This document shows, in pieces, positions 4,646 to 53,767 of a DNA stretch of 64,000 nt. Location of the stretch: the NCBI GenBank assembly GCA_037305845.1, contig CP147778.1, positions 868,783 to 932,782 on the forward strand, read 5' to 3'. Made by a program: the position numbers and the translations under genes. The number at the start of each line of letters is the position of its first letter. Position 1 is the first letter of the stretch. The notes under the pieces were generated by a model. The model was not told where the DNA came from. It did not search any database and saw nothing but the letters and a program-made list of their open reading frames with translations. Source of the stretch: Candidatus Freyarchaeum deiterrae (GTDB lineage Archaea > Asgardarchaeota > Jordiarchaeia > Jordiarchaeales > Jordiarchaeaceae).

Positions 4646-6382
4646 GTGGCCACAACGCTAACGGGAAGTCCAAAGTCGATCTTGCCGAAGGGTTATATTA
4701 GACATAAAGAGGTAAGAAGAACAAACATTATGATTGCAAGGGCGATTTCCGATGTTGTAAAAACAATGTTGGGACCTAAGGGAATGGATAAAATGCTAGT
4801 GACCGAAACAGGAGATGTGGTTGTCACAAATGATGGTAAGACGCTATTGGATAATATACGTGTTACTCATCCTATTGCCAAGATTCTTATAGGTGTTGCA
4901 AAGACGCAGGATGCTATTGCAGGTGACGGCACGAAGACCGTTGTAATGCTCGCAGCGGAACTGCTGAAGGAAGCGGGGAAGTTGTTAGATCAAAAGATTC
5001 ATCCCACAGTTATAGTTAGGGGGTACGATAAAGCTACCAAGAAGACCTTAGAGATTTTGGATAGTATCGCAATGCCTGTATCCATCGAGGAGGAGGAGAC
5101 CTTGAAAAGAGTCGCACGAACCGTTATGGGAGGCAGAATCGGTGCAGGATTAAAAAATCATCTTGCGGGTCTTGTTGTTATCGCAGTTAAGCGTGTTGCC
5201 GAGGAGAGGAGGGGCAAAGTAATCGTAGATGTGGATCAGGTTGGTTTCGCAAAAAAGGCTGGGGGAAGTATAAACGATTCTGAATTAGTTGAAGGAGTGG
5301 TCATCTCCAAAGGGAAACCTCATCCAAAGATGCCCGAGAGGATTGAAGACGCAAAAATTGCTTTATTGGAGTGCTCACTTGATCCTCTCACACGAAAGAA
5401 CACGGATTGGAGAAAGGAGTATGTAATTAAGAAACCAGAGCAGCTGAAAGGTTTCATTGATAAGGAGAAAGAACTTAACATGGGAATTGCGGAGCACGTT
5501 AAACGTGCGGGTGCGAGAGTTTTGTTCTGCCGTAAGCGCGTTAGCGAATCGATTCTTAATTGCTTTGCTGAAGAAGGGGTGTTAGCGTTCGATTTGGTGA
5601 GAGAGAATGATATGACGAGACTGGGGAGAGCAACGGGAGGTAAAATTGTGTCCAGTGTGGATGATTTAACAGAGAACGACTTGGGCGAAGCGGGGTTAGT
5701 GGAGTTCCGTAAAATCGCGGGAGATGAGATGCTGTTTATAGATTGCTGCAAAGATTCAAAGGCAACTACGATGTTGATCAGAGGTGGAACTGAACAGGTT
5801 ATAGAGGAAGTGGAGAGAGTTATTAAAGACAGCTTTAAAGCAGTGGCTGTTACAGTCGAGAGCGGTAAAGTCATCGCGGGCGGCGGAGCCATAGAAATGG
5901 AAGTTTCTGGAAAGTTAAGAGATTTTTCGAAAACATTTAAGGGCATAGAACAACTGGCAATAGAAGCTTTTGCAGTTGCTATGGAAGTTATTCCAAAGAC
6001 TCTTGCAACTAACGCCGGATTAGACCCTATAGATGTTTTGATAAAGTTGAGGACCGGACATGCTAATGGCTGTACGCACCTTGGAATTAATGCCGTAGAA
6101 CATGAGGTTGAGAATGTAATGGAGAGAGGCTTGGTTGACGCGTTCAAGGTCAAACAGCATGCAATTAAAGCTGCAAGCGAGACCGCAGCGATTATTTTGA
6201 GGGTTGACGATTTTATCGCCGCCACTAATCAAAAGGAAATAAAAGAAGAGGAGAAGAGAAAAGAAAGCGAACGAAAACGGATCATGGGTGAACAGGTTAG
6301 AAGGGTTCTAGAGAAAGAAGAAGAGTTGAAAGAGATCGACAGGCGTTTTATGGAAAAGATAAAGCATCCAGAAACCGTCTAA
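4646..6382 (+). CDS. ths: Group II chaperonin (thermosome/CCT-like subunit), divergent
   Basis: GPKGMDKML, VTNDGKTLL, GDGTKT (canonical GDGTT[TS]) and AGGGAIEME chaperonin motifs. GTG start preceded by GGAGA. Carries an unusual ~55-aa Lys/Glu-rich C-terminal tail. Confidence 0.9.
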   Translation: MATTLTGSPKSILPKGYIRHKEVRRTNIMIARAISDVVKTMLGPKGMDKMLVTETGDVVVTNDGKTLLDNIRVTHPIAKILIGVAKTQDAIAGDGTKTVVMLAAELLKEAGKLLDQKIHPTVIVRGYDKATKKTLEILDSIAMPVSIEEEETLKRVARTVMGGRIGAGLKNHLAGLVVIAVKRVAEERRGKVIVDVDQVGFAKKAGGSINDSELVEGVVISKGKPHPKMPERIEDAKIALLECSLDPLTRKNTDWRKEYVIKKPEQLKGFIDKEKELNMGIAEHVKRAGARVLFCRKRVSESILNCFAEEGVLAFDLVRENDMTRLGRATGGKIVSSVDDLTENDLGEAGLVEFRKIAGDEMLFIDCCKDSKATTMLIRGGTEQVIEEVERVIKDSFKAVAVTVESGKVIAGGGAIEMEVSGKLRDFSKTFKGIEQLAIEAFAVAMEVIPKTLATNAGLDPIDVLIKLRTGHANGCTHLGINAVEHEVENVMERGLVDAFKVKQHAIKAASETAAIILRVDDFIAATNQKEIKEEEKRKESERKRIMGEQVRRVLEKEEELKEIDRRFMEKIKHPETV

Positions 6383-21648: not shown

Positions 21649-23520
21649 TTATTCGCCCCATAGATCCTTAGCCACATCGGGCAAACCAAGCAGTATCAAT
21701 CTATCCTTCTCTGGAATAGCGTCCTCAGTCCATCCACGAAAAGCATAGTACTGTTCCATCATCTCTTTCATCGGCGGAACTTTGCCCTTCTGACTGCCCT
21801 CTTTGGTGGGCGTCAAAAGCCTTGGCGGAAGCTTATTGTCTTTATCACGCATTCCTACACGTACGTTATAGGCCCACTTAAGATTGTACAATTTATCTGC
21901 AGTAATGTTCAAGTAGAGCTCGTCAGTCGCCCAACCGCAACAATTCTTAAAGGCTTCAATAAAAGTCGTTATTCCAAAGGGCATAGCTCCGAAAAAGCAT
22001 AGTACTGATGATCCTAGTAATGCGAATAGGTCTTGTACTATTGCGGTGATTTCGCCCTTTCTTGCGGGGTCGAATCTTCCTGTTCTTTTCAGCAATCCTG
22101 CGGAGGCGTTTAGTATTCCCATGTCTGATATGCAGGCGTATCCGGTTACGTGGCATGCTCCTCTGTGTGAGGTGGCGTATTCTACTCCCATTGAGTAGAA
22201 TGCTCGGGGGTCGTGTCCGGGGGCTTCGAGTCCTTTGACTGTTGTGAGGAATTCGTGTCCTTTACCCAGTTTGTCAGCTGCTGCTTGTGAGCCGTCACCT
22301 AGGAGTACTCCTGCTTTTCCTTCTCTCTTGACTATCTTCTCTGTTATCTCAAGCATTGCTTCAGCGTCTCCCCATTTTAGGGCTATTCCGTCGAGGTCAT
22401 TCTTTTTTATTATTCCCTTCTCGAGTGCTTCAGTCGCCCAGGCGATTGTTGACCCTGTGGATATGGTGTCTACTCCATAGTCGTTGCAGAGCTGGTTCGC
22501 CATAGATATTGCTTTAAGGTCGTCTATGAGTAGCATGGAGCCGAATGTTACACAGGTTTCATATTCTGGTCCCGGGCCTTCGAACTCGAAGGGTTCTTTA
22601 ATTTCTATCCATCTGCCGCATCTTATGGGGCAGCCGAAGCAGCCAGTTCCTCTCTTAAGTATGGTATTAGCCATTTCCCCTCCGCCAATCTTGGTTGTTC
22701 CTTCCCATTCTCCCAGTTGCCAGTTTTTGATCGGAATGTCTCCCATGGGGGCCATGGAGTCCATCATATATTCGGTTCCGTATTTTTGCATTCCTGATAC
22801 TAGCATGGGTCCGACAGAGCTGGGTGACCCCTTCGGAATAATCAATTGGGTGAGTCTTTTGATTTGTTCTTTTACTGCTCCAGAGTCTGCCCACTGTATT
22901 TCTCCGGTTCCTCTCACGGCTATGGCTTTGAAGTTTTTGCTTCCCATCACTGCCCCGGAGCCGCCTCTTCCTAAGGCTCGGGCTTCATCGTTTAGAATGT
23001 TAGCTAGTTTTGATTGCTTCTCGCCGGCTGGTCCTATGCATAGGACTCTGGCTTTTTTCTCTCCGGTTTCTTCTTGGATCATTTCTTGGGTTTTGAAGGT
23101 TCCTTGTCCCCATATGCCAGAGGCGTCTCTGAGTTCTTTTTGAGCGTCTTTTATCCAGAGGTATACTGGTTTGTCGGATTTTCCTTCGATGATTATTCCG
23201 TCGTATCCTGCTCTTTTCATTTCTATAGCGAAGTAGCCGCCGGAGCTTGCTTCTCCGTAGCCGTGCGAGATTGGTGATTTGAATACTACGGTGAATCTTG
23301 AGCTGCAGGGTAAGCCGCCTGAAAGTGGTCCTGTGAAGAAGTAGAGTTTGTTTCTCTCGTCGAGTTCATCAATGTCTGGGGGGACTTCGTCGTAGAGTAG
23401 TCGGGCTCCGAATCCGCTTCCTCCGAGCCAGTTTTTCGCCCATTGCTCATCTAATGGTACTTCTTTTATTGTTCCCTCTGAGAGGTTTACTCTTAGGTAT
23501 TTACCCATCCATCCGAACAT
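21649..23520 (-). CDS. Tungsten aldehyde:ferredoxin oxidoreductase (AOR family)
   Basis: N-terminal GKYLRVNLSEGTI, GGSGFGARLLY, GRGGSGAVMGSKNFKAI and the C-terminal pterin-binding domains. 623 aa as expected. Confidence 0.9.
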   Translation of the reverse strand: MFGWMGKYLRVNLSEGTIKEVPLDEQWAKNWLGGSGFGARLLYDEVPPDIDELDERNKLYFFTGPLSGGLPCSSRFTVVFKSPISHGYGEASSGGYFAIEMKRAGYDGIIIEGKSDKPVYLWIKDAQKELRDASGIWGQGTFKTQEMIQEETGEKKARVLCIGPAGEKQSKLANILNDEARALGRGGSGAVMGSKNFKAIAVRGTGEIQWADSGAVKEQIKRLTQLIIPKGSPSSVGPMLVSGMQKYGTEYMMDSMAPMGDIPIKNWQLGEWEGTTKIGGGEMANTILKRGTGCFGCPIRCGRWIEIKEPFEFEGPGPEYETCVTFGSMLLIDDLKAISMANQLCNDYGVDTISTGSTIAWATEALEKGIIKKNDLDGIALKWGDAEAMLEITEKIVKREGKAGVLLGDGSQAAADKLGKGHEFLTTVKGLEAPGHDPRAFYSMGVEYATSHRGACHVTGYACISDMGILNASAGLLKRTGRFDPARKGEITAIVQDLFALLGSSVLCFFGAMPFGITTFIEAFKNCCGWATDELYLNITADKLYNLKWAYNVRVGMRDKDNKLPPRLLTPTKEGSQKGKVPPMKEMMEQYYAFRGWTEDAIPEKDRLILLGLPDVAKDLWGE

Positions 23521-23527
23521 CTCTCTT

Positions 23528-24850
23528 TCACCTCACTTTTGTTATGTCGGGTTCCTCCACGCGTTTAAATCCTTCTTTAGGAACTGGGTCTATCTTCTTG
23601 TAGAACCTTCTTAGAACAAGTCCCGCGGGTTGCTGGTGCAGGAAGGTTGGTTTTGCTGATTCCATGGGTTCAATGTCTTTGAGCTCGTAATCCTTACTAC
23701 CTAAGCCGATTTCTTGTCCTACGTTACACTGTATGTCCTCGCTTACACCCAAGAATGAACCTGAAACAGAAAACTTTGGTCTCCCTTTAGTTGCATCTTT
23801 CTCCTCGGCTACAGAACCAGGCATTGCTATTGATTTAACAGCCATGTCTAAGCAAGCTCGGTCTATAGCAACGGGATCTTTACTGGCGAAGATTCCCATG
23901 TTGGGAATGATGGCGCGGTCGGAATAAGGAATACAGTCACACCAAGGTGTGCTGTCTAATCCAAAGTTTAGGAATCCCACTTTTCCTGGCTCAAATGTGT
24001 TCATACAGGCTTTTGCCGAATCAGCCACTGCGACGCAAGTAGCTTCAAACCAGTCTATTAATTTCAAGTTCGCGAAAACTCCGCAATCCAGAGTCGTGAA
24101 CATGTGACATGTGCAACCATTGCAGAGTTCCTTAATGAATTCAATAGGCCCCTTTTCCGGAACGACCAGCGCCCCTTCAGGACAGATAGAATTACACGTC
24201 TCCCACTTCGAGCATTCCCTGCCGCCACAATAACCGGGTATGTATTCCATCGTTTGCATGCCTAGGACTGGATGAGCTCCCATGTGAAGGTTGTATTTCC
24301 CTCTCTTAGATGCACACCCCACACCAACGTTTTTAATGGCTCCACCAAAGACTCCCCATGGGTGTCCCTTGAAGTGGCTTAGGACTATCATGGAGTCAGC
24401 GCATGCTACTGCTGTTGCTACGTATTGTTCTTTGAGTATGTATCCTTCGGGTAGGTCTATTCTGACATCGTCGGTTCCTAGGAATCCGTCTCCGACTATC
24501 ACTGGGCATCCTACTGTTCCGGAGTTGAATCCGTTTCTTTCAGCGGTCATGTAGAGGTCCCAGCCGTTTGTTCGGAAGCAGAAGGGTGCGTATGGTAGTG
24601 TGGTTGTTTCGACTACGAATGGTCTCCCTCCGAGTTCTTTTACTTTGTCTACTATTGCTCTTACGTAAACTGGTCTGAGATAGCCGGTGTTGTTCCATTC
24701 TCCCAAGTGGGCTTTTATTACTACATAGTCATCTTTGTCTATGCACTCGTTTAGTTTGGCTTCGTTGAATAGATGTAGTGCTTTTGCAACTAGGCTGGTA
24801 GAAGTTCCATAAGCTCTATCATCCATATGCAATACTTCAGATTTTGCCAT
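23528..24850 (-). CDS. DUF362 domain protein with a Cys-rich Fe-S insert
   Basis: DDYVVIKAHLGEWNNTGYLRPVYVRAIVDKVKELGGRPFVVETTT is typical of DUF362. Has a cysteine cluster CGGRECSKWETCNSICPEG. Ends 7 nt upstream of the AOR gene. Confidence 0.7.
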   Translation of the reverse strand: MAKSEVLHMDDRAYGTSTSLVAKALHLFNEAKLNECIDKDDYVVIKAHLGEWNNTGYLRPVYVRAIVDKVKELGGRPFVVETTTLPYAPFCFRTNGWDLYMTAERNGFNSGTVGCPVIVGDGFLGTDDVRIDLPEGYILKEQYVATAVACADSMIVLSHFKGHPWGVFGGAIKNVGVGCASKRGKYNLHMGAHPVLGMQTMEYIPGYCGGRECSKWETCNSICPEGALVVPEKGPIEFIKELCNGCTCHMFTTLDCGVFANLKLIDWFEATCVAVADSAKACMNTFEPGKVGFLNFGLDSTPWCDCIPYSDRAIIPNMGIFASKDPVAIDRACLDMAVKSIAMPGSVAEEKDATKGRPKFSVSGSFLGVSEDIQCNVGQEIGLGSKDYELKDIEPMESAKPTFLHQQPAGLVLRRFYKKIDPVPKEGFKRVEEPDITKVR

Positions 24851-25060
24851 CTTTTACTCTCCCTTTCATAAATATTTTCAAAATTCGTCATTTTTTATAA
24901 ATTTGTTATGTATTGACTTGATTTTTCTAATTCTTAAATTTTATTCTGCAATTGTCGTATTTTTTTGTCGGGTTGAAGATAAAAGTAGATTAGTGTTGTG
25001 TTTCCAATATTATATTATACTTTTTCTCAGTTTTTGAAACAGAACGATTTATTTTCGAGT

Positions 25061-25951
25061 CTACATGCACCTGTAGAGTTGGATGAGGGGTGTCACATCG
25101 TTTAGTGCCGCTTCAAGGCTTATGGAGGAGTATTGGTCTATTTGATATTGTTCATCATCATCTTTCTTTATTACGTTGTGTTTTTCTAGGAGTTCTAACG
25201 CTTCTGCTGCGCTTTCGAAAAGGTTGGAGTTTTTTGTTTGGTTTATTGTTTGATGTTGTAGTATTTGGAGTGCTGTTACTTCTAGTTTCTCTTGGCGTAT
25301 TTCTTTGAGAGCTAGTATTATGTTTTTGGGGGGTGGGGTTCCTGCTTTCCAAATGAACGTTTCTTTTCCTAGCCCTTGTAGACTGATTATTTTGTTGTCG
25401 TGAAGTTCTTTTATGAGCAGCTTGGGGTTATCGGTGAAGTTTTGGGTGAGCTTAATGATATCTTCCGTGTTTGCCGGGTTAGGGGAGTGAAGTATTGCAT
25501 CGAATACTTTTCTAAGTTCGCTCCAGTCTTTGTGGTTTCCTTGGAGTAGAAAACCGCTGTATTTCAGAACCGAGATTTTTCCGTTTTTCACTATGATGGG
25601 GTTCAGTTCATTCTCGACTTTTGTGAGAAGATCCTTGAAAACTCCATTTCCGTTTGGAGTTACTCCGGTTATCTCTGTTACCAGTTCGGGAAGTTCAGCG
25701 GGTATGTTTAGAAGCCTAGCGGCTCTGGCAGTGATTGATTCTATTCCATTTGAGAAGAAAACGTCTATGAGTTTCCTCACATGGTAGGTGGGAAGGATGG
25801 ATTTTTTTTCATAGAATTTTTTTATGCACTGGTCAATGAATTTTCTTCGGAGTGTTTCCCCTATTTTTAGGGAGGGAAAAAGTGTGGTGAATGCTACCGC
25901 ATCCCTGTTTGCTCGAATGAAGCTCAGTGAACCAGATTGTTCAGGGTGCAA
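25061..25951 (-). CDS. ORFan, 296 aa, last gene of the HerA-NurA transcription unit
   Basis: Long uninterrupted ORF on the same strand as NurA/HerA, with a mixed alpha/beta composition. I recognise no motif. Confidence 0.55.
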   Translation of the reverse strand: MHPEQSGSLSFIRANRDAVAFTTLFPSLKIGETLRRKFIDQCIKKFYEKKSILPTYHVRKLIDVFFSNGIESITARAARLLNIPAELPELVTEITGVTPNGNGVFKDLLTKVENELNPIIVKNGKISVLKYSGFLLQGNHKDWSELRKVFDAILHSPNPANTEDIIKLTQNFTDNPKLLIKELHDNKIISLQGLGKETFIWKAGTPPPKNIILALKEIRQEKLEVTALQILQHQTINQTKNSNLFESAAEALELLEKHNVIKKDDDEQYQIDQYSSISLEAALNDVTPLIQLYRCM

Positions 25952-26019
25952 AGTTAAACCCCCTTATAATTTCTTATACTCCAAATCACCTCTACTCCGC
26001 AAGGAAGCCCACTAACTTT

Positions 26020-43884: not shown

Positions 43885-44202
43885 ATGGCAGCACGTCAAT
43901 CAAAAGTCGCATTTACTATGGATAATGCTAAAAAATGCATCTGCGGTAAATGCCCAGTTCAGGCCAATAGCAAGTGTGTAAAGAATTTGCAGGCAAAATT
44001 AATGGAAACATTGAAAAATCCGAAGGCGACGCCCAAGCCTAAAGAGATGCCTGGGTTTTACTGTTCTGCCGGTAAAGCTTCGTGTAAAGACCTTGACACA
44101 AAGAAAGCTTGCATTTGTGCTACATGTCCTGTCTTTGCAGACTTCAAGTTAGCAAGTGGAAAACCAGTTGGTTATTACTGCAGAGATGGAAGATCCATGT
44201 AA
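43885..44202 (+). CDS. Cys-rich DUF2769-like protein
   Basis: Two CIC(G/A)xCPV motifs (CICGKCPV, CICATCPV) plus additional cysteines. GGAGGAGGA lies upstream. Confidence 0.6.
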   Translation: MAARQSKVAFTMDNAKKCICGKCPVQANSKCVKNLQAKLMETLKNPKATPKPKEMPGFYCSAGKASCKDLDTKKACICATCPVFADFKLASGKPVGYYCRDGRSM

Positions 44203-45371: not shown

Positions 45372-46100
45372 GTGTTTGTAGTAGATGATAGGACGATAAA
45401 GATGAAATCATTTGACTTTGTGGTTAGAGTTGGCGGGAGTCTTTCTAGAAGCAAATTGATTATGAGGAAACTATTCGAGGAACTCGCGGTAATTTCTAAG
45501 AACCATAAATTACTCGTGGTTCCGGGTGGTGGTCCTTTCGCGGATATGGTTCGTAGGATTTATTATAAGTTCAATATTTCCGAGGATGCTGCTCACTGGA
45601 TGGCTATTCTAGCTATGGACCAGATGGGGTACTTCTTTTCCGATTTTCATCCTAATATTAGGGTCGTTGATGAGATTAAGGAAGCTAATCAAGTAACCCG
45701 TGGTTTGATTCCTGTTTTGACTCCCTCTAGGATAATGATTGATGAAGACCCTCTACCTCATTCTTGGGATGTAACTTCTGATTCTATAGCAGCTTATATC
45801 GCACACATCACCGGTACCAAAAAATTATTTATTCTAACCGATGTTGACGGAGTATTTACTTCCGATCCTAAATCCAGCCCTGATGCAAGGTTGGTGTATG
45901 AGATTTCGGCGGAGGAGCTTGCTAGTAAAAATATTTGTAGCAGTGTTGACAAAAAGTTTCCGAGCTTGGTTTCAGAGTATGGATTAGAGTGCCTGGTTCT
46001 TAATGGAAAACACCCTGAGCGAGTAACTCAAGCTTTAAACAACAAAAAGGTTAAGGGAACCACTATATACTCTTCTGCTACTCGTAAGATAACCAATTAA
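45372..46100 (+). CDS. mfnE: Amino-acid-kinase-fold protein, MfnE-like ([5-(aminomethyl)furan-3-yl]methyl phosphate kinase family)
   Basis: VVRVGGS, VVPGGGPFAD and SWDVTSDSIAAYIA...LTDVDGVFTSDP. The short AAK fold matches my recollection of the MfnE family. The true start may be the Met at 45402. Confidence 0.55.
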   Translation: MFVVDDRTIKMKSFDFVVRVGGSLSRSKLIMRKLFEELAVISKNHKLLVVPGGGPFADMVRRIYYKFNISEDAAHWMAILAMDQMGYFFSDFHPNIRVVDEIKEANQVTRGLIPVLTPSRIMIDEDPLPHSWDVTSDSIAAYIAHITGTKKLFILTDVDGVFTSDPKSSPDARLVYEISAEELASKNICSSVDKKFPSLVSEYGLECLVLNGKHPERVTQALNNKKVKGTTIYSSATRKITN

Positions 46101-46155: not shown

Positions 46156-46866
46156 TTAGACCGTGAACTCTTTTATTATGAGTTTGGGTTGGTCTATGAC
46201 CTTTTTGATGGGGGACGTCAGCCAGTAAATTGAGGTTCGCCAATCTACCTCAACGTAGCCTCTTAATTCTAGCCAGTTTAAGTGTTGACGGAGAGCCCTC
46301 GCATCTATGTTCAAGTCTTCCCGCAATAATTCGATTCCTTTAACTTCTCCATCGTGGCGCATCATTAATTTTAAAAGGTTTAACTCTTTCTGGACGGTGA
46401 TCAGTAGTAGGACCCGTAGTGCGTTTTCAACGTTTTGACCAGTTTTTGCAATCGTTGGGACGATATAAACTTCTGAGGGAATTTCTAAAGCTTCTCTTAT
46501 TTGCGCCACTTTGCGTGCATTGGGGAGATCCTGTTTATTCGCCACGACAGTTATTGAGACTCCTGGTAGGAATTCTTGAATTTCCTTCCATATAGTTTTA
46601 GCCTCTTGGTCCGAGTTTTTATCCTGACTGTCAACCATGAAGAGGACGCCGTCGGCTCCTTTGGATAAAATCTGTCGTAGGATTTTGAAGTGTTTTAATC
46701 CAGGAGTTCCAAACAGATTAATCCTCAAGTCTTCAATATTTGCTATCCCGTAGTCAAGTGCTACTGTTGTGTTTTTTTTGTCTATACTGATGCTTTTACC
46801 TTGGGTTAGATTTCTTATTATGGTAGATTTTCCGGAATGATAACTACCAGTGACCAAGATTTTCAA
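46156..46866 (-). CDS. MglA-like small GTPase fused to a C-terminal winged-helix domain
   Basis: G1 GSYHSGKST, G3 FGTPG (lacks the Asp, like MglA TxPGQ) and G4 NKQDL. The C-terminal ~70 aa (HDGEVKGIELLREDLNIDARALRQHLNWLELRGYVEV) look like a wHTH. Confidence 0.75.
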   Translation of the reverse strand: MKILVTGSYHSGKSTIIRNLTQGKSISIDKKNTTVALDYGIANIEDLRINLFGTPGLKHFKILRQILSKGADGVLFMVDSQDKNSDQEAKTIWKEIQEFLPGVSITVVANKQDLPNARKVAQIREALEIPSEVYIVPTIAKTGQNVENALRVLLLITVQKELNLLKLMMRHDGEVKGIELLREDLNIDARALRQHLNWLELRGYVEVDWRTSIYWLTSPIKKVIDQPKLIIKEFTV

Positions 46867-47005: not shown

Positions 47006-47755
47006 TTATAGAACTTTGAATTGTGTGACTTCGTGTAATATATTTGATAGTTCTTGAACTCTTCCCCGAACGATTTTTCCCTGTCTGTTTGATTTTTCAC
47101 ACGCCGCGCCTCTTATGCCCACAACATCTGCGCCAAAATCGCGGATCAGGGGGAGCTCTACCTTTTTTATTGAGCCTGCTAGGGCAACTAGAACATTCTT
47201 ATCATGGGCTTCTTTGACAAAGTTTTCGACAGTATCCCAGGACCATAAATCGAGCAAACCCTCGCCGTCTTTAATCGCCGTGTCAACCATTGCAACATCG
47301 GCTCCCGCTTCCGAAGTTATTTGAGGAATCAAGGATGGGTCTATAGCGTTTATTTTGTGCGCATCAGCGTATCCGGCTATCACAACCTTGATGTTTGGAT
47401 TATAATCCTTGACGCTTCTTACGACTTGTTTTGCAAAGTAGAGGGCGTCTTGATAAATATTTACACCATGTAATCCCACTTTTACATAATTCGCGCCACT
47501 CACTGCTGCCCCTAGAGCGGCTAGGGACGCTGTTCCGGGTTTGTTTGGGAAGTCTCCGATAGCGGCGCTGACTTCCAGCTCTATAGGGGTTATTTCTCTT
47601 ATTCGTCGAATTATCGAGGGAAAATTGGCTCCTAGAGAGCCTTCTGAGGGGTTCTTTACATCTATAATGTCAGCTTTGCCGGCTATAGCTTCTAGAGCTT
47701 CTTCCTCATCCTTTGGACTGATAAGTAATTTCAATTGATTCACAATCCTCCTCAA
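47006..47755 (-). CDS. mfnB: DUF556 / MfnB-like (5-formylfuran-3-yl)methyl phosphate synthase
   Basis: LLISPKDEEEALEAIAGKADIIDVKNPSEGSLGA is the family-typical N-terminus, with a TIM-barrel length. Confidence 0.65.
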   Translation of the reverse strand: MRRIVNQLKLLISPKDEEEALEAIAGKADIIDVKNPSEGSLGANFPSIIRRIREITPIELEVSAAIGDFPNKPGTASLAALGAAVSGANYVKVGLHGVNIYQDALYFAKQVVRSVKDYNPNIKVVIAGYADAHKINAIDPSLIPQITSEAGADVAMVDTAIKDGEGLLDLWSWDTVENFVKEAHDKNVLVALAGSIKKVELPLIRDFGADVVGIRGAACEKSNRQGKIVRGRVQELSNILHEVTQFKVL

Positions 47756-47947
47756 AGTAAGCTTACCATATTTAGAAGTGGGTTCTTAACGCGTCTTGGG
47801 TCTGGTTATTAATTGCGTGTATTTTTTACTAAATGAGACTCAACTTTTAAGCTTTCTTCTTGGAGTTAAAGAGTAGTAAAAGGTAATTTGCGGTATTCAC
47901 TCTTTATTAGGTTAGGGAAATAAAAGAAGGAGTATGTTATTTTCCGA

Positions 47948-50362
47948 TTAGGCTTCTTTGAGTTTTCTTGAATAGCCTAAAACTTTACTATATTCTTTTC
48001 CGATTTTTTCTGCTATTGCGGGTGCTATGTATCTTTCTATGTCGCCTTCCATTATGGTGCTGGGTCTGATTTTTGGGGATAGTTTACCTTCTCTCTGTAA
48101 ATCAGCTAGTAGGTTTTTTATCTCTTTTAATGCTTCATCGTAGGTTATTTTTTCAACTTCGGCGCGTTTAAAGCTTGTGTGTATTGTATTTATAGATAGG
48201 TAGTAGAATTTGGCGAGAGCTTCCATGTTTCCCAGCTTGACTGGTGTAACCGATCCATGATTCGGACAATAAGATTTCTCCAACTCCTTACTACAGAGGG
48301 GGCACACGGTTTTCCCAGTTTCTGTACGCAGATAGAAGATTATCATTGCTGAGGTTCTGCGGTTATCATCTTCAGTCCAAGCTAACTGGGTTAGCTCTAC
48401 ACCGCTGATTGCTCTCATGGCAACGTTTATCTTCTTTTCGATGAGACCTATTGGTTCGACTTTTTCGAATCTTTCCATTCTAGCGAGTTCTTTTTTCTTT
48501 TCTTCCTTCTCCTTTGCGTCACCTATGCGTTTTCTTCTTCCCTCTTGTATCGTGAGGTAGCGCTGTGTGAGGTCAAAAGCAGTAGCGTAACTTATTGGTG
48601 GAATCTTTTCTATTTTAAGGGGTTTCTCAACCACACCTAGAAAGGTGGGACTTGACGAACTTTTCAGTTCTTCCATTGATTCTTTAAGAGAGTTAATGCT
48701 GGTACGTGCCCATATGAAACCATTTATCTGGTTAGAGTTCAGATGTGGGAATACATCTTCTAATTCTTTTTGGCGAATCATAATTAAATCGAAGAAAAGC
48801 TCCTCTTTTGAGGTTTTAAGGTTGGGTTCAGGTTCGTCTATAACTGTCTTGTAGATGACTCCAAATCGTTCAATATCTTTTCTTAGTCTCTCGTAGATTT
48901 CGACTATGCGGCTCACATGTGTGAAAGTGTCTGAGATTAGTTTGTAGTAAGCGTCGTCATTAACTCGTCGGACGAATTCCTCTATTTGGCTTATTGCGGT
49001 CAATTCTTTTATGCTTCCGATGTTCAAGCCACTGAGAATCTGGTTAACCTTTTGCTCGGCTTCAAGAAGTTCTTTTAGTTCCTCTGGAGGAGGAGGCGTC
49101 ATATATTTCTTAAGCTCTTTTAGTATAAGGTCATCTATGCCAGTTATCCCGCCTGCGGGTTTGGTGTAGGTCCATAAGGAAATCTTTCCCTCTTCTATTT
49201 TGTAACCCTGGCCTTTGAGGCGGGGTATTACGTTTTTGACTAGCGTGTTTCGTATTCTGAGAAGACGGTTTAGTCTCTCAATCGTATAATTGAAGTCCTT
49301 GGCACTAATTTTAGTCTCTTCCAGTTTTTTGGTTAGTTTATCAACGGGGAGCGTGAGTGAGGAACATAAAGTATACCAATCGTCGAATCCTTGTTGTTTC
49401 ATTCGGTGTTGAATATCTTCCCGGGTCTCATCCAATAGATACATGAGGAACGATTCGAGCATAACTGGTTCGGCGGCTTTTTTAATTACCTCATTTCTAA
49501 TAATTTTACTAGCCATCTCGTATAGGTCGTTTAACGGTGTCTTTTTTGCATCATAATCATCAAATAGTTTTAGAAGTTCTAGTTTCAATTTGCATACATC
49601 GATGTAAGCTTTTAAATCCAATTCTTTTTGTGGTATATTTTTCATCAGGTTTTCAGTTACTACTGAAGAAGTATTTTCCAAGTTCTCGACATCAGTCGTT
49701 AGACTTTCGAGGTTAATCATCTCTTCTAGTTTACTTTTTAATTCTTTGTAAGTTGATATTTCGGTGCACTCCTCATCATGAGAACCTTTGATATCTTCTT
49801 CAAGTTCCATAGGTTTTGGTTTGAATCCATACGCCAGTTTTATCTTCTCTACCCTGATCGGTGGGGCGAGATAGCTTATGTTTCCCAAAAAGTCAATAAA
49901 ATGTGTTTTAGGGTACTTGTTGTATATTTCAATTAATTTTTCTTGAATTAGTTTCTGAAGTTTGCTTTTGGACTCACCCTTAAGCCTTATTTTTGCAGCC
50001 TCTGACTGAATTTCTATTTGCCGTCTTAACAGCTCTCGTTCTTTTTGAAATGAATCAGCCAAAAGGAGGTCTACTTCGTAATAGAGTTGGTCCAACTGTC
50101 TTTTAGCTAATCCTGCCTGTTCTTCAGGCGGGATACTTTCACCTGATGCCAGATCAATCGTGTGTATACCGCGATAGTGGTAAATGTAAGATACCACTGC
50201 AGCTTTAACAAAATCGGAGAAAATGGCTCTCTCTCCCACTATCGAGATCAGGTATTTCTGCTCCGGTTCAGATTTTAAGCGCGTGGCTAAGACTTGCCTC
50301 ACGACAAGTTCTTGAGCTACTTCTCTTAACAACATTCGCTGTGAAGTTAACCAATCAGACAT
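47948..50362 (-). CDS. Giant ORFan B (804 aa) with a CxxC...CxxH zinc knuckle
   Basis: Uninterrupted 2.4-kb ORF starting 4 nt after giant ORFan A ends. Mostly helical and charged. Contains CPLCSKELEKSYCPNHG (about 48250-48310). No P-loop or other enzyme motif seen. Confidence 0.7.
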   Translation of the reverse strand: MSDWLTSQRMLLREVAQELVVRQVLATRLKSEPEQKYLISIVGERAIFSDFVKAAVVSYIYHYRGIHTIDLASGESIPPEEQAGLAKRQLDQLYYEVDLLLADSFQKERELLRRQIEIQSEAAKIRLKGESKSKLQKLIQEKLIEIYNKYPKTHFIDFLGNISYLAPPIRVEKIKLAYGFKPKPMELEEDIKGSHDEECTEISTYKELKSKLEEMINLESLTTDVENLENTSSVVTENLMKNIPQKELDLKAYIDVCKLKLELLKLFDDYDAKKTPLNDLYEMASKIIRNEVIKKAAEPVMLESFLMYLLDETREDIQHRMKQQGFDDWYTLCSSLTLPVDKLTKKLEETKISAKDFNYTIERLNRLLRIRNTLVKNVIPRLKGQGYKIEEGKISLWTYTKPAGGITGIDDLILKELKKYMTPPPPEELKELLEAEQKVNQILSGLNIGSIKELTAISQIEEFVRRVNDDAYYKLISDTFTHVSRIVEIYERLRKDIERFGVIYKTVIDEPEPNLKTSKEELFFDLIMIRQKELEDVFPHLNSNQINGFIWARTSINSLKESMEELKSSSSPTFLGVVEKPLKIEKIPPISYATAFDLTQRYLTIQEGRRKRIGDAKEKEEKKKELARMERFEKVEPIGLIEKKINVAMRAISGVELTQLAWTEDDNRRTSAMIIFYLRTETGKTVCPLCSKELEKSYCPNHGSVTPVKLGNMEALAKFYYLSINTIHTSFKRAEVEKITYDEALKEIKNLLADLQREGKLSPKIRPSTIMEGDIERYIAPAIAEKIGKEYSKVLGYSRKLKEA

Positions 50363-50366
50363 TCCA

Positions 50367-53111
50367 TCACTCTCCCTTTTTTACATGCGTCTTCATCCAA
50401 TTATTTCCAATCGAAAGCCTGACTCGGCCGGGAGCCGAGTAATCGTATAGAACGAGATACTCCAAGCTCTGATCATCCTTGTTTCTAAGATATAGTCTTG
50501 TAGGTTGGGGTAAAAGTCCGCTGAAAGCTTTCAGATAAGTGTACTCGATATAATCAGGTAGTCCTTCAATAAAAACAGTCGGCGTTCTAGGTTGAATTTC
50601 TAAAGACTTCATTGAATCCATAAACTTGTTTATTTCGGGCTTAAAGAGCCTAGATGTGTCTTTGCTTAAATTCAACATGTCCGAATAAGTGCTCATAAGA
50701 GTATTTACCGCTTGCAATAAGGTTTCAAGCCGAGCTATTTGGGCATTATATTCACTAATTTGCGCTTCCAGCGATTTTAAATCGGCTAAGAGTTGGTTAT
50801 AAGCTGGTTCGAGGCCGTTTATTTGCTCATTTATTTGCTTTAACTGATTCTGTAGGATTTGCACATCCTTAGCCATTTTTTCAATATCGGCATTTAGTTT
50901 TTCAATGGAAGAACGAAGATTAGTGGTTTGGATTTGCAAATCTGCGTCGCTTCTTCCTCCCGCAACAGTGGCTTTTATGGCTTTGAGTCTTTGTATCTCT
51001 GCTTCTATTTTATCAATTAATTGTCTTTTAGCTTCTATCTCTTCACGGAGCCGTATTGGTGTTTCCTGCTTTACTTTTATTTCCTCTTCGATCTTCTTTC
51101 TAATATTAACTTTAGCGTCTATATCGCTTTTCACAACTTTAAGTTGCTGTTCAGTGCTGTACATCCGGTTTCTCAATTCTTCTATCTTGTTATTCCACTG
51201 TTGAATTTCGTGTTCTATACTTTGGTTCACTTCTCTCAAATGGTTGAGAGGCGCGTACTCTCCGCTTCCCTTTTCTATCTGATCACTAACGAAATTTACG
51301 AAGCTCTTTATTAATTTGAAAGCTGATAATTTTTTTTCCTCTACCTCTTCTTTAAACTTGGCAATCCATATTTGTGCTAATTCTTTCCACTGTGGGTATT
51401 CTTCAAACTCGGGTTCAATATAACTTGAAAAAGCGTCAGGGAATTCATCTGTTGAGAGTTTATCCTGTTTCTTTTTTATAAATTTGGGAAGCACGTCGTA
51501 ACTCAATATATAATCTGCAAGGCCGGGAACCACATCGTTCATTCTGTTGATTATACTCTCTTTAGTATTTTTCAAAAACGCTTGCACTTCGGATCCCACT
51601 TTTTCTGTGGTAGTATTACTTGCAATTTCTAAGAGTTGTATGGGAGGAATTATGCTCTCTCTATAACCGAATCTCAGAGCAGTATCAAGGATATCACTCT
51701 TAACCGTGTTTTTGAGTCCTTCTTCTGTCCAGTTTGTCGGTCCGATTAGCGCGTATTTGCCCTCTATCTCGTTTCCAAAAAATAACTTGAACTCATCCAA
51801 GTATTTTTTTAGAAGCCCTGTTCGTGTTTCATCCTTCCTCAAGCTCTCAAAAAATCTTTGGAAGATTTGCTCTGCCAACTCCTTTTCACATTTGGTTGCC
51901 AGGAAAGCGAATAGAGCGTGATCAAAAACATCGAGCGCTCTCTTCGCATGTACCATAAAGTATGCCAAATCACCTTTGAATTCCCATGCCCAGATTTCTT
52001 TAGTACCTTCCCCGTATTCGGATATAAGATACTCCTGAAAAGCATTCCCCAAATAAGTCATTAGGGGAGCAGTGTTACTCTCATTCTTACCTATCATTTT
52101 TTCAAGGCTTTCTATATGACCAGCTATTTTTAATTTTGCACCGCTCTGTATAAATGTGTTTCCTTTCTCTTCAAATCTATCAAGAACTTCGTTACACTCC
52201 TTGAGGAACTCTTTCTCTGAGTCTAGAAGCCGTCTGGGTTGCTGTGCGGATACGTTTTCCAGTCTTTTACTAAAGTCGTTAAACAAGGCCTCGACAACGT
52301 TTTTTTCCACAACTTCAATGGTGTAGTCGTTAATCAGCGAAAGAATCTCTCTTCCTAATGCTCCTAGATCATCCATTAAAGTTTTGATGGCGGTCTTCGT
52401 AAATATCATGGTCTGGAGATGTTCAAGTAGAGCTTCATCCGGGGCGGAGAGATCTTGAATGGTCACTTTGTCAACAGTGGCCTTAAACCCTGCGGGTCTT
52501 AAAGAGTAATCAATTTCGAAGTTTCCTGTGACCACTGTGTCAATATCAATTCCAATATGTTTGATAAAATCTCTACCGTATTTTTCACGATACTTCTTCT
52601 GGATTACTTCTCCTTGAACGCGTTTTGTAAAACGATCAACAAACTTTTCTAAAACGTTAGCTCCCTCTGATTTAAGTTTTAAACCGGATACGGAGCATGC
52701 TTCTTCTATGTCATATAGCTTCTTGTTTAATTCGTCGGCTAGGTCGATTGATCGAATTATATCCACCAAGCCCTTTTCCTGTTCTAAAAGAACCAAGAAG
52801 TTTGAATTTTCTTCATGGAACCCCATGTTTAATAACAACACTTCGGGTAGTGTACCGCCCTTAGTCATCCTCAAGAGTTCAAACTCCGCTGCTCGAAGTT
52901 CAACTCCACTCTCTTCTCCGATTAAATGATTTAGTTTATGTATTAATTCTCCGATGTGTGACGCTAACGTTTTAGCTCTGGCTAATGAAACAGTTTCCGG
53001 CCCAGCTAGAGAGCCGAAAGAGCCAGTGTTATTTGAAGTATATCCGAAAACGGAAACGACAGCCTTTTTTAAGGCTTCAGCGGTGCTAGGTGCAGCTTCT
53101 CTACGTGACAT
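50367..53111 (-). CDS. Giant ORFan A (914 aa) with a ~200-aa coiled coil
   Basis: Uninterrupted 2.7-kb ORF. The heptad-rich segment from IEELRNRMYSTEQQLKVVKSD to LEAQISEYNAQIARLETLLQ spans about 50710-51260. No nucleotide-binding motif seen. Confidence 0.7.
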   Translation of the reverse strand: MSRREAAPSTAEALKKAVVSVFGYTSNNTGSFGSLAGPETVSLARAKTLASHIGELIHKLNHLIGEESGVELRAAEFELLRMTKGGTLPEVLLLNMGFHEENSNFLVLLEQEKGLVDIIRSIDLADELNKKLYDIEEACSVSGLKLKSEGANVLEKFVDRFTKRVQGEVIQKKYREKYGRDFIKHIGIDIDTVVTGNFEIDYSLRPAGFKATVDKVTIQDLSAPDEALLEHLQTMIFTKTAIKTLMDDLGALGREILSLINDYTIEVVEKNVVEALFNDFSKRLENVSAQQPRRLLDSEKEFLKECNEVLDRFEEKGNTFIQSGAKLKIAGHIESLEKMIGKNESNTAPLMTYLGNAFQEYLISEYGEGTKEIWAWEFKGDLAYFMVHAKRALDVFDHALFAFLATKCEKELAEQIFQRFFESLRKDETRTGLLKKYLDEFKLFFGNEIEGKYALIGPTNWTEEGLKNTVKSDILDTALRFGYRESIIPPIQLLEIASNTTTEKVGSEVQAFLKNTKESIINRMNDVVPGLADYILSYDVLPKFIKKKQDKLSTDEFPDAFSSYIEPEFEEYPQWKELAQIWIAKFKEEVEEKKLSAFKLIKSFVNFVSDQIEKGSGEYAPLNHLREVNQSIEHEIQQWNNKIEELRNRMYSTEQQLKVVKSDIDAKVNIRKKIEEEIKVKQETPIRLREEIEAKRQLIDKIEAEIQRLKAIKATVAGGRSDADLQIQTTNLRSSIEKLNADIEKMAKDVQILQNQLKQINEQINGLEPAYNQLLADLKSLEAQISEYNAQIARLETLLQAVNTLMSTYSDMLNLSKDTSRLFKPEINKFMDSMKSLEIQPRTPTVFIEGLPDYIEYTYLKAFSGLLPQPTRLYLRNKDDQSLEYLVLYDYSAPGRVRLSIGNNWMKTHVKKGE

Positions 53112-53293
53112 GGTTAACCCTCACTTCTCGAAATGATTTTAATTTAAAATATGTCCTTTAGAATTATTTAACGTTTCTCACAGGAATCGATTCGCAAATT
53201 TATCTCTTCTAGAAACATTTCCGTAGGCGCTCCTTGCTCAAAACGAAAGAATCTTAAATTCAGATTGTATTCATAATTTACAAGGTGTAAGTA

Positions 53294-53767
53294 ATGGCTA
53301 ACGCAACACTAATAGCATTCAGTATCGTATTAGGCGCTCTCGGGGTATTCACAGTTATAGTAGCTTTTGCATTCCAAAGTATTGCGGGATTGGTTATTGC
53401 CCTTGCTATTTTTGTTATCAGCGTAATAAGTCTAGCTTGGGGCTTTAGAGAAGAACCCTCCAAAAAAGAAAAAGCGTCAAAGCCTGTCAAGGTAGAAGCA
53501 CCAGTTAAAGTGCAACCAAAGGCTCCCACACCCCCGCCCACCAAGGTAGAAACACAATTCAAAGCAAAAACGCCTGCCAAGGTAGGAGTGCCAGTTAAAG
53601 TGCAACCAAAGGTAACAACTATTCCAGTAAAAAGCGGGAAACCCAAATCGGTCAAACCCAACAAGTCTAAAATTCTACCACCGAATACGGTTTATTGTCC
53701 ATATTGTGGAAAACAAATACCTAAGAACAGTGTTTTCTGTCCAAATTGCGGATCATCAATAGAGTAG
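53294..53767 (+). CDS. Membrane-anchored Pro/Lys/Val-repeat protein with a C-terminal zinc ribbon
   Basis: Two N-terminal TM helices, a repeat KV(E/G)xPVKVQPK encoded by a ~35-nt direct repeat (53488-53522 and 53578-53612), and a C-terminal YCPYCGKQIPKNSVFCPNCG. Confidence 0.7.
   Translation: MANATLIAFSIVLGALGVFTVIVAFAFQSIAGLVIALAIFVISVISLAWGFREEPSKKEKASKPVKVEAPVKVQPKAPTPPPTKVETQFKAKTPAKVGVPVKVQPKVTTIPVKSGKPKSVKPNKSKILPPNTVYCPYCGKQIPKNSVFCPNCGSSIE

Follow-up and report, generated by a model that had tools for sequence, protein, structure and literature searches.

A conserved Asgard-only pair of large proteins encoded side by side in Candidatus Freyarchaeum deiterrae, a candidate scaffold complex

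The described systems closest to the gene pair reported here are arm proteins of the SMC/Rad50/MukB type, regulators of the Roadblock/LC7 (MglB, PF03259) and longin type (Ragulator, Mon1-Ccz1, FLCN-FNIP, Nprl2-Nprl3), eukaryotic alpha-solenoid/HEAT scaffolds (adaptor and coat, tethering, and condensin HAWK proteins), and zinc-ribbon and coiled-coil hairpin proteins of the COG1579/CT398 type. The pair, termed A and B, is encoded by the archaeon Candidatus Freyarchaeum deiterrae (Asgardarchaeota; Jordiarchaeia). It lies in a 64,000-nucleotide (nt) stretch of contig CP147778.1 (GenBank assembly GCA_037305845.1, positions 868,783 to 932,782 of the forward strand), and this whole analysed stretch is called the window. 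Its list of open reading frames (ORFs) gives the two genes as follows (lengths in amino acids, aa).

50367-53111, minus strand: gene A, first in the pair, 914 aa; founding member of an Asgard-only family of 755-914 aa.
47948-50362, minus strand: gene B, second in the pair, 804 aa, all-helical; member of an Asgard-only family of ~790-825 aa.

An earlier note, made from the DNA letters, described two minus-strand ORFs of 914 and 804 aa, 4 nt apart, and those coordinates are exact (the gap is 50363-50366). We infer that the two products associate physically, and it is highly probable that they form an obligate, Asgard-specific complex.

Conservation of the two genes as a unit is the main evidence for such a complex. 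In word-indexed searches A and B were confined to Jordarchaeia, with 16 Jordarchaeia homologues of A. A scan of species-representative genomes placed A in eight species, seven titled Jordarchaeia or Freyarchaeota and one only "Thermoproteota archaeon". Locus L015 (JAPDJY010000035.1), which bears the title "Thermoproteota archaeon", carries the A-B-HEAT cluster typical of a distant Jordarchaeia clade, and its public metagenome-assembled genome (MAG) label may be wrong. Searching exhaustively with a hidden Markov model (HMM) of B gave 49 clusters at E <= 1e-3, and about 20 of these are full length (~790-825 aa, E 1e-110 to 1e-40). The named clusters, on which "Asgard-only" rests, are all Asgard: Jordarchaeia, Thorarchaeota, Lokiarchaeota CR_4, Lokiarchaeia/Promethearchaeia, Helarchaeota and "Promethearchaeota".

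An unannotated ORF of 755-879 aa lies directly upstream of B in eight Thor-, Loki- and Hel-type loci (L016, L017, L018, L019, L021, L022, L023 and L024). It is a homologue of A, with BLASTP E = 5e-47 end to end in a Thor-type locus and 2e-16 in Loki CR_4; four of these ORFs match an A N-terminal HMM at E 1e-57 to 3e-23, and the rest match a broad HMM at E 1e-80 to 1e-115. The two genes had been called ORFans, a label that no longer applies with B in 49 clusters and an A homologue adjacent. Phyletic profiling and a check of adjacency, both proposed in the earlier note, covered 13 contexts from Jord-, Thor-, Loki- and Hel-type lineages: the window, close-clade loci L004 and L006, the distant Jordarchaeia clade, the eight Thor/Loki/Hel-type loci, and L020. 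A homologue of A stands directly upstream of B in 12 of the 13, the spacing between them ranging from an overlap of 19 nt to a gap of 21 nt. The genes around the pair change completely from one lineage to the next, so the conserved unit under selection is A-B by itself.

Divergence of the two proteins proceeds in step, at 69-87% identity in the close Jordarchaeia clade, 32-38% in the distant clade, and then ~21-25% and ~17-23%. Ratios of nonsynonymous to synonymous substitution (dN/dS) are 0.07-0.15 for A and B in all unsaturated comparisons with orthologues, indicating that the genes are real and under strong purifying selection. No relative of the pair was found on viral contigs. Inheritance of the pair appears to be vertical across Asgard classes. 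Paralogy between A and B was ruled out by an hhalign probability of 1.6%.

The arrangement of the genes in the window is consistent with joint expression. The control signals proposed around the pair are the following.

50370-50376, minus strand: GGGAGAG, a ribosome-binding-like (GGAG-type) motif within the last codons of A, 8 nt ahead of the B ATG.
47915-47929, minus strand: T-rich run CTTCTTTTATTTCCC, a putative archaeal terminator ~20 nt past the B stop codon.
53112-53293, unstranded: divergent intergenic region of 182 bp, a putative promoter with A/T-rich TATA-like elements and a GAGG motif ahead of ATG.

The A/B junction reads GGGAGAG-TGA-TGGA-ATG, and the position of the motif within the end of A suggests translational coupling of B. 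The T-rich run past B, the 192-nt gap between B and the following gene (encoding MfnB), and the fact that MfnB is unlinked to the pair elsewhere indicate that A-B is probably bicistronic, and a bicistronic A-B transcript is the simplest reading. On the other side of the pair, A is divergent from a gene for a small membrane/zinc-ribbon protein, and the divergent arrangement is the same in all close-clade loci. The region is a putative promoter common to A and that gene. A sigma-70 promoter and terminator scan, which is uninformative for archaea, gave nothing above shuffled expectation, and no RNA genes or tRNAs were found in the window.

AlphaFold2 models of A and B were built with family alignments; they are usable, of medium confidence, and were searched as whole chains. 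The A model has a mean predicted local distance difference test score (pLDDT) of 74.4 and a predicted template modelling score (pTM) of 0.61. It agrees with the layout first proposed for A, namely an N-terminal globular part, a coiled coil and a small beta-rich C-terminus, and shifts the coiled coil from ~50710-51260 to 50613-51254. Four parts can be delimited.

52677-53111, minus strand: A residues 1-145, N-terminal alpha/beta domain; best-conserved part of the family, low model confidence (pLDDT 28-70).
51264-52676, minus strand: A residues 146-616, conserved basic helix (FVDRFTKR...QKKYREKYGRDF), second small sheet and long helical body.
50613-51254, minus strand: A residues 620-833, antiparallel coiled-coil hairpin of helices 620-712 and 722-833.
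50385-50582, minus strand: A residues 844-909, C-terminal helix and three strands; conserved in all lineages (block conservation 0.68).

Residues 1-220 of the model form the alpha/beta N-terminus. In residues 1-145 the predicted order is strand-strand-helix-strand-strand-(strand)-helix (strands 20-26, 30-36, 70-78 and 91-95, helices 43-68 and 118-141), and T10, G23, G33, G37, G69, E76, P89, G97, L109 and D117 are conserved family-wide. The second small sheet spans residues 189-218 and the helical body 225-616, the latter with pLDDT mostly 70-90. F157, R160 and F161 of the FVDRF helix are conserved in at least 90% of 14 family members (F157 and R160 strictly invariant), as are P870, L875 and N904 of the C-terminal domain in at least 90% of members. 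As judged from the family alignments, the conserved core of A is the N-terminal alpha/beta domain, the FVDRF helix and the C-terminal domain. The best-conserved blocks of A (residues 61-120, 161-180 and 861-880) are the lowest-confidence regions of its monomer model.

The coiled-coil segment of A varies with lineage: it is longest in Jordarchaeia (212-220 aa), intermediate in Thor-type proteins (161-171 aa) and shortest in those of Loki/Hel type (76-127 aa). The long form is a lineage-specific Jordarchaeia expansion. Its tip is a loop of 8-10 residues (…KATVAGGRSDAD…) without Cys, and is neither a hinge nor a CxxC zinc hook. Two hydrophobic, low-complexity ORFs of 97-99 aa (50905-51204 and 51021-51314, plus strand) run antisense within the coiled-coil coding region; they are most likely shadow ORFs of Glu/Lys-rich codons.

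The B model (pLDDT 74.5, pTM 0.60) consists of 34 helices and a short strand-rich knuckle, which is centred on CPLCSKELEKSYCPNHG (residues 687-703). The expectation that B is helical with a zinc knuckle near residue 690 was thus borne out. Three segments stand out.

48257-48304, minus strand: B residues 687-702, CPxC-x8-C-x2-H zinc knuckle; C687, P688, C690, C699 and H702 invariant in Jordarchaeia.
49751-49876, minus strand: B residues 163-204, strongly conserved (…KLAYGFKPKP…HDEECTEIST) at pLDDT < 50; candidate partner-binding segment.
48560-48922, minus strand: B residues 481-601, the most conserved core, with motifs SRI.E.Y.K.K.D, EEL, RQ.EL, NGFI.AR and SP.SY..A.D...R.

The knuckle has the ligand spacing of CxxC...CxxH sites and is predicted to bind zinc. 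Of 19 family representatives, 17 retain its four Cys/His ligands; in the other two, P0045 and P0046, these are cleanly deleted. One Helarchaeota MAG encodes two divergent B paralogues, P0038 and P0046 (ACTSO9_14325 and ACTSO9_00065), and P0046 is the one without the knuckle. The earlier note had presented the coiled coil and the zinc knuckle as the defining features of the pair; since the coiled coil shrinks outside Jordarchaeia and the knuckle is deleted in two of the 19, both are better regarded as lineage-variable ornaments. The conserved core of B is instead formed by residues 481-601 (R485, E488, D496, K505, E520, E533, A552 and R601 invariant; block conservation 0.65-0.76) and 637-666 (adding W662 and D666), together with E14, E96, E108 and E201. 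E201 is invariant in 19 members and lies in a block with conservation 0.69 at pLDDT 36. The best-conserved blocks of B, residues 181-200 and 581-600, are again the lowest-confidence regions of the monomer model. Both proteins (~90-105 kDa, with isoelectric points (pI) of 5.4 and 6.8) are soluble by hydropathy, with a 19-residue maximum of 1.0-1.3 (1.04 for A).

Neither protein could be placed in a known family by profile searches. Pfam, NCBIfam, PADLOC and PHROGs gave only sub-threshold coiled-coil matches for full-length A and none for full-length B, and the same four libraries gave coiled-coil noise only for six domain pieces, 19 B-family members and the distant A, C and D proteins (C and D being operon partners described below). 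PDB sequence-profile searches with five alignments (A3, A2, A5, A6 and A10) found nothing or the coiled coil only. A pattern search of A and B found neither Walker A, nuclease, peptidase or other simple catalytic patterns nor transmembrane-like segments, which together with the profile libraries agrees with the initial view that there is no enzymatic motif. The pair occurs in several Asgard lineages and so is not unique to this genome.

Structure comparison of the AlphaFold2 models, also suggested in the earlier note, was run with Foldseek against PDB for both proteins and against BFVD for B, and no match reached E <= 1e-3. The A list consists of helical hairpins with template modelling (TM) scores of the query (TMq) <= 0.17. 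B gave a best E of 0.15 against PDB and 0.02 against BFVD, with TM < 0.12. One A homologue carries a COG1579/CT398-type name at JGI, and A does have the hairpin in common with that group (4ilo_A, probability 1.0, 168 columns); however, A lacks a zinc ribbon (the knuckle is in B), and the likeness is that of a generic helical hairpin at E = 0.047. In literature on the Loki CR_4 homologue and in structure-based Asgard surveys, no description of the family was found. The A and B families are new at the family level, as judged from medium-confidence models, PDB and BFVD structure searches and library searches.

Several small or helical proteins recur beside the pair. The window has a possible accessory gene of this kind.

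53294-53767, plus strand: possible accessory, 157-aa membrane/zinc-ribbon protein (Pfam Zn_Ribbon_1, 3e-9), divergent from A.

In this protein a K/P-rich linker joins two hydrophobic segments at the N-terminus to a zinc ribbon at the C-terminus, and its gene (129-157 aa) is divergent from A in every close-clade locus. The Loki/Hel-type loci L019, L021, L022, L023 and L024 encode a small protein, D, of 85-121 aa with two hydrophobic segments and a charged tail. The D proteins are homologous to one another (E 1e-20 to 1e-35), and D is within the operon in four of the five loci and 3.7 kb downstream in L023. The architecture of the membrane/zinc-ribbon protein resembles that of D. A third gene, C, of 400-550 aa, starts at most 25 nt after B in L017, L019, L021 and the distant Jordarchaeia clade and 94 nt after it in L024; its product is at least 335 aa in L017, where it is cut by the contig end, and is unannotated in L019, L021 and L024. 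Neither C nor D is present in the clade of the window. The distant Jordarchaeia clade has, 20 nt after B, a gene for a 398-aa HEAT-repeat protein (L001:15037-16233; also L012, L013 and L015), with Pfam matches to HEAT_2 (2e-26), Cnd1 (6e-20) and Adaptin_N (2e-16) and also to PDS5 and Cohesin_HEAT. After it comes a gene for a 114-aa zinc-ribbon plus winged-helix-like protein (L001:16278-16622), and both are conserved clade-wide.

The best explanation of the pair, which we hold tentatively, is an obligate A-B scaffold complex that may well be tethered to the membrane. The structural, membrane-linked role first suggested for these proteins remains the best guess and gains some support from the recurrent small membrane proteins; we infer both the membrane attachment and the scaffold role. 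A and B would be two subunits made from one short transcript, with translation of B coupled to the end of A. They would form a non-enzymatic scaffold whose conserved parts are the alpha/beta domains at both ends of A, the helical body of A and the helical core of B. The most conserved stretches of A and B probably fold only against a partner, an interpretation drawn from the finding that the best-conserved blocks are the least confident in the monomer models and may order only in the complex. A small anchor protein would hold the complex at the cytoplasmic face of the membrane, where it may serve as a platform with a structural, tethering or coat-like role. In Jordarchaeia, A would have gained a coiled-coil arm of ~200 residues projecting from this platform.

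Membrane anchoring is suggested by the small two-segment proteins that recur beside the pair, the clade of the window having its own membrane/zinc-ribbon protein. A scaffold is favoured by the lack of a catalytic signature, the large helical architecture, the alpha-solenoid third subunit and, above all, the recurrent small membrane protein. Eukaryotic alpha-solenoid/HEAT scaffolds offer a likeness here: B is an 800-aa all-helical protein, a HEAT protein with Adaptin_N and Cnd1 matches is co-encoded in one clade, and there is a link to a small membrane protein. B itself differs from them in that no HEAT, ARM or TPR repeat family was detected in it or in 19 family members, and its best Foldseek matches (importins, WAVE complex) had E >= 0.15 and TM < 0.1. 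A more specific version, in which A-B, a helical or HEAT subunit and a small membrane protein together build an Asgard-specific membrane-associated scaffold (tether, coat or protrusion support), is a speculative possibility and rather doubtful.

Several observations weigh against the scaffold interpretation. Locus L020 has a full-length B (P0035, 2152-4557) without an adjacent A and is the sole exception to the pairing; upstream of this B there are only 2.1 kb of sequence, which hold an unrelated divergent ORF. Homology between D and the membrane/zinc-ribbon protein is suggestive only (hhalign 22%; reciprocal best, sub-threshold HMM E ~0.15), and no small membrane protein is beside the pair in Thor-type loci or the distant Jordarchaeia clade. 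The third gene does not form a single clear family: the L021 and L024 proteins are homologous (E = 3e-9) and the others are marginal (E ~1e-3 to 2e-2), so the proposal of a single conserved third gene was only partly upheld. The invariant residues of B (E14, E96, E108, E201, R485, E488, D496, K505, E520, E533, R601 and D666) could equally mark an active site or a nucleic-acid-binding surface.

Regulation of small GTPases is an alternative role for A-B that we consider unlikely. In this reading A has a Roadblock/longin-type N-terminus, and A-B is a guanine nucleotide exchange factor, a GTPase-activating protein or an effector scaffold that serves one of the numerous Ras/Arf/Rag-like GTPases of Asgard archaea. 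It counts in its favor that the longin/Roadblock regulators of eukaryotes are, as a rule, large heterodimers, and A-B would likewise be a large two-subunit assembly. The predicted order of secondary structure in A residues 20-141 appears to fit the Roadblock/longin pattern. Roadblock/LC7 genes are divergent directly upstream of A in L017 (4953-5363, minus strand) and L022 (3933-4319, minus strand), and small GTPases lie two genes from B both in the window and in L020 (Arf/RagA-like, 5686-6306, minus strand). However, A residues 1-226 had no Pfam match even at E <= 10, hhalign of A6 against a Roadblock alignment gave 0.1% probability, and the PDB profile search contained no Roadblock, MglB or LAMTOR chain; a Roadblock identity of the A N-terminus was rejected at the sequence level on these grounds. 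The relevant part of the A model is of low confidence (pLDDT 28-70), and the expected fifth strand (residues 99-117) is unmodelled. B has no comparable alpha/beta domain. Asgard genomes are rich in GTPase and Roadblock genes, so a minority adjacency can arise by chance; the neighbours are inconsistent across lineages, and L017 and L022 are syntenic, so their Roadblock adjacencies are not independent observations.

The GTPase of the window also has a different context. It is a small Arf/Ras-type protein (46156-46866, minus strand) with a ~75-aa C-terminal extension that gives a weak winged-helix match, and it sits between MfnB (47006-47755, minus strand; Pfam 4HFCP_synth, 3e-79), which is beside the pair, and an MfnE-type AA-kinase gene (45372-46100, plus strand). 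Gene tables for sister Atabeyarchaeia genomes (PMC11291895) place MfnB and MfnE right next to each other, indicating that MfnB belongs with the AA-kinase gene and that the GTPase is an insertion. The GTPase thus looks inserted into a methanofuran-biosynthesis cluster. The flanks given for the pair in the earlier note (MfnB and an MglA-like GTPase on one side, the divergent membrane/zinc-ribbon gene on the other) are all present, but MfnB and the GTPase are not conserved partners beyond the close clade, in which synteny extends over the entire neighbourhood.

A chromatin or nucleic-acid complex, in which A would be an ATPase-less SMC-like arm protein and B a zinc-knuckle protein, joined in some lineages by the HEAT and zinc-ribbon/winged-helix proteins, likewise seems improbable. 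In Jordarchaeia A, an antiparallel coiled-coil hairpin of ~210 residues separates a large N-terminal part from a small alpha+beta domain at the C-terminus, a likeness to SMC/Rad50/MukB-type proteins. Window A possesses such an arm, and its hairpin superposes on SMC arm fragments (5xg2 and 5nnv; TM of the target, TMt, 0.44-0.45; E ~3e-3 to 1e-2). The CCCH knuckle in B and the basic conserved motif QKKYREKYGRD in A are in keeping with nucleic-acid binding, as is the HEAT protein of the distant Jordarchaeia clade with its Cnd1, PDS5 and Cohesin_HEAT matches, followed by a zinc-ribbon and winged helix-turn-helix-like protein. Nevertheless, A lacks the ATPase head motifs (Walker A, Walker B and signature) as well as a hinge or zinc hook at the tip. 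The TIGR02169, TIGR02168 and Rad50 models scored 30-36 bits against cut-offs of 567-1087 and aligned only to A residues ~583-840, which is the coiled coil. Outside Jordarchaeia the arm is short or missing, two of 19 B representatives do without the knuckle, the two proteins are acidic to neutral overall, and the HEAT matches are generic repeat matches. Neither the GTPase nor the chromatin alternative excludes that the pair is located at the membrane.

An unrecognised enzyme or enzyme complex, with a new-fold active site made from invariant acidic and basic residues of B, is quite improbable. It would account for the 15 invariant positions of B across 19 very divergent members, which are mostly Glu, Asp, Arg and Lys and cluster in residues 485-601. 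No catalytic family was matched in the four profile libraries or in PDB sequence and structure searches, an all-helical, solenoid-like B as modelled would be more typical of scaffolds, and A has no invariant polar cluster beyond Gly, Pro and aromatic structural positions.

A defence or toxin/effector pair, which the earlier note had also considered, is very improbable: two large uncharacterised genes share one operon, A has PADLOC coiled-coil matches (MkoC, LmuB and JetC) and its top Foldseek matches are alpha-pore-forming toxins (AhlB/XaxB/YaxA; E >= 3e-3, TMq 0.09-0.12, root-mean-square deviation (rmsd) 22-24 A), but the PADLOC matches cover only residues ~570-830 of A with none for B and none outside low-complexity or coiled-coil sequence in either, the structural matches are limited to the coiled coil (E > 1e-3, TM 0.1-0.24, rmsd > 20 A) with no global likeness of fold and no hydrophobic segment in A, and the pair lies among housekeeping genes with synteny conserved within each clade, appears to be inherited vertically across Asgard classes at dN/dS <= 0.15, is found on no viral contig and has no BFVD structure match for B.

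Other neighbours and features of the window were also recorded. In Thor-type loci an ODP-type metallo-beta-lactamase gene lies directly upstream of A (L016:4295-5242 and L018:4333-5295), with a DUF123 gene before it. Two DHDPS-Fae fusion genes follow B in L016 (10519-13398); they belong to C1/methanopterin-related metabolism, as does MfnB after B in the window. Elsewhere in the window, a 105-aa cysteine-rich ORF with repeated C.C..CP motifs (43885-44202, plus strand) matches DUF2769 (5e-9). The region 22001-26000 has a strongly negative AT skew (-0.26 to -0.31) and a raised GC content of up to 0.476, over a minus-strand gene run at 21649-25951.

The A-B pair is conserved as a unit in at least four Asgard groups, yet it matches no domain library searched and no solved structure. 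Should the pair prove to be a membrane-linked scaffold, it would point to Asgard-specific cell architecture that homology-based surveys have overlooked. If the fuller version with a helical subunit and a small membrane protein were true, a membrane-organising machine unrelated to known eukaryotic-signature proteins would date back to the ancestor shared by Jord-, Thor-, Loki- and Helarchaeota. Whatever the function, the family as now defined, with its core domains and recurrent partners, a coiled-coil insertion specific to one lineage and a zinc knuckle that some members do without, is a concrete, testable target for groups culturing Lokiarchaeia.

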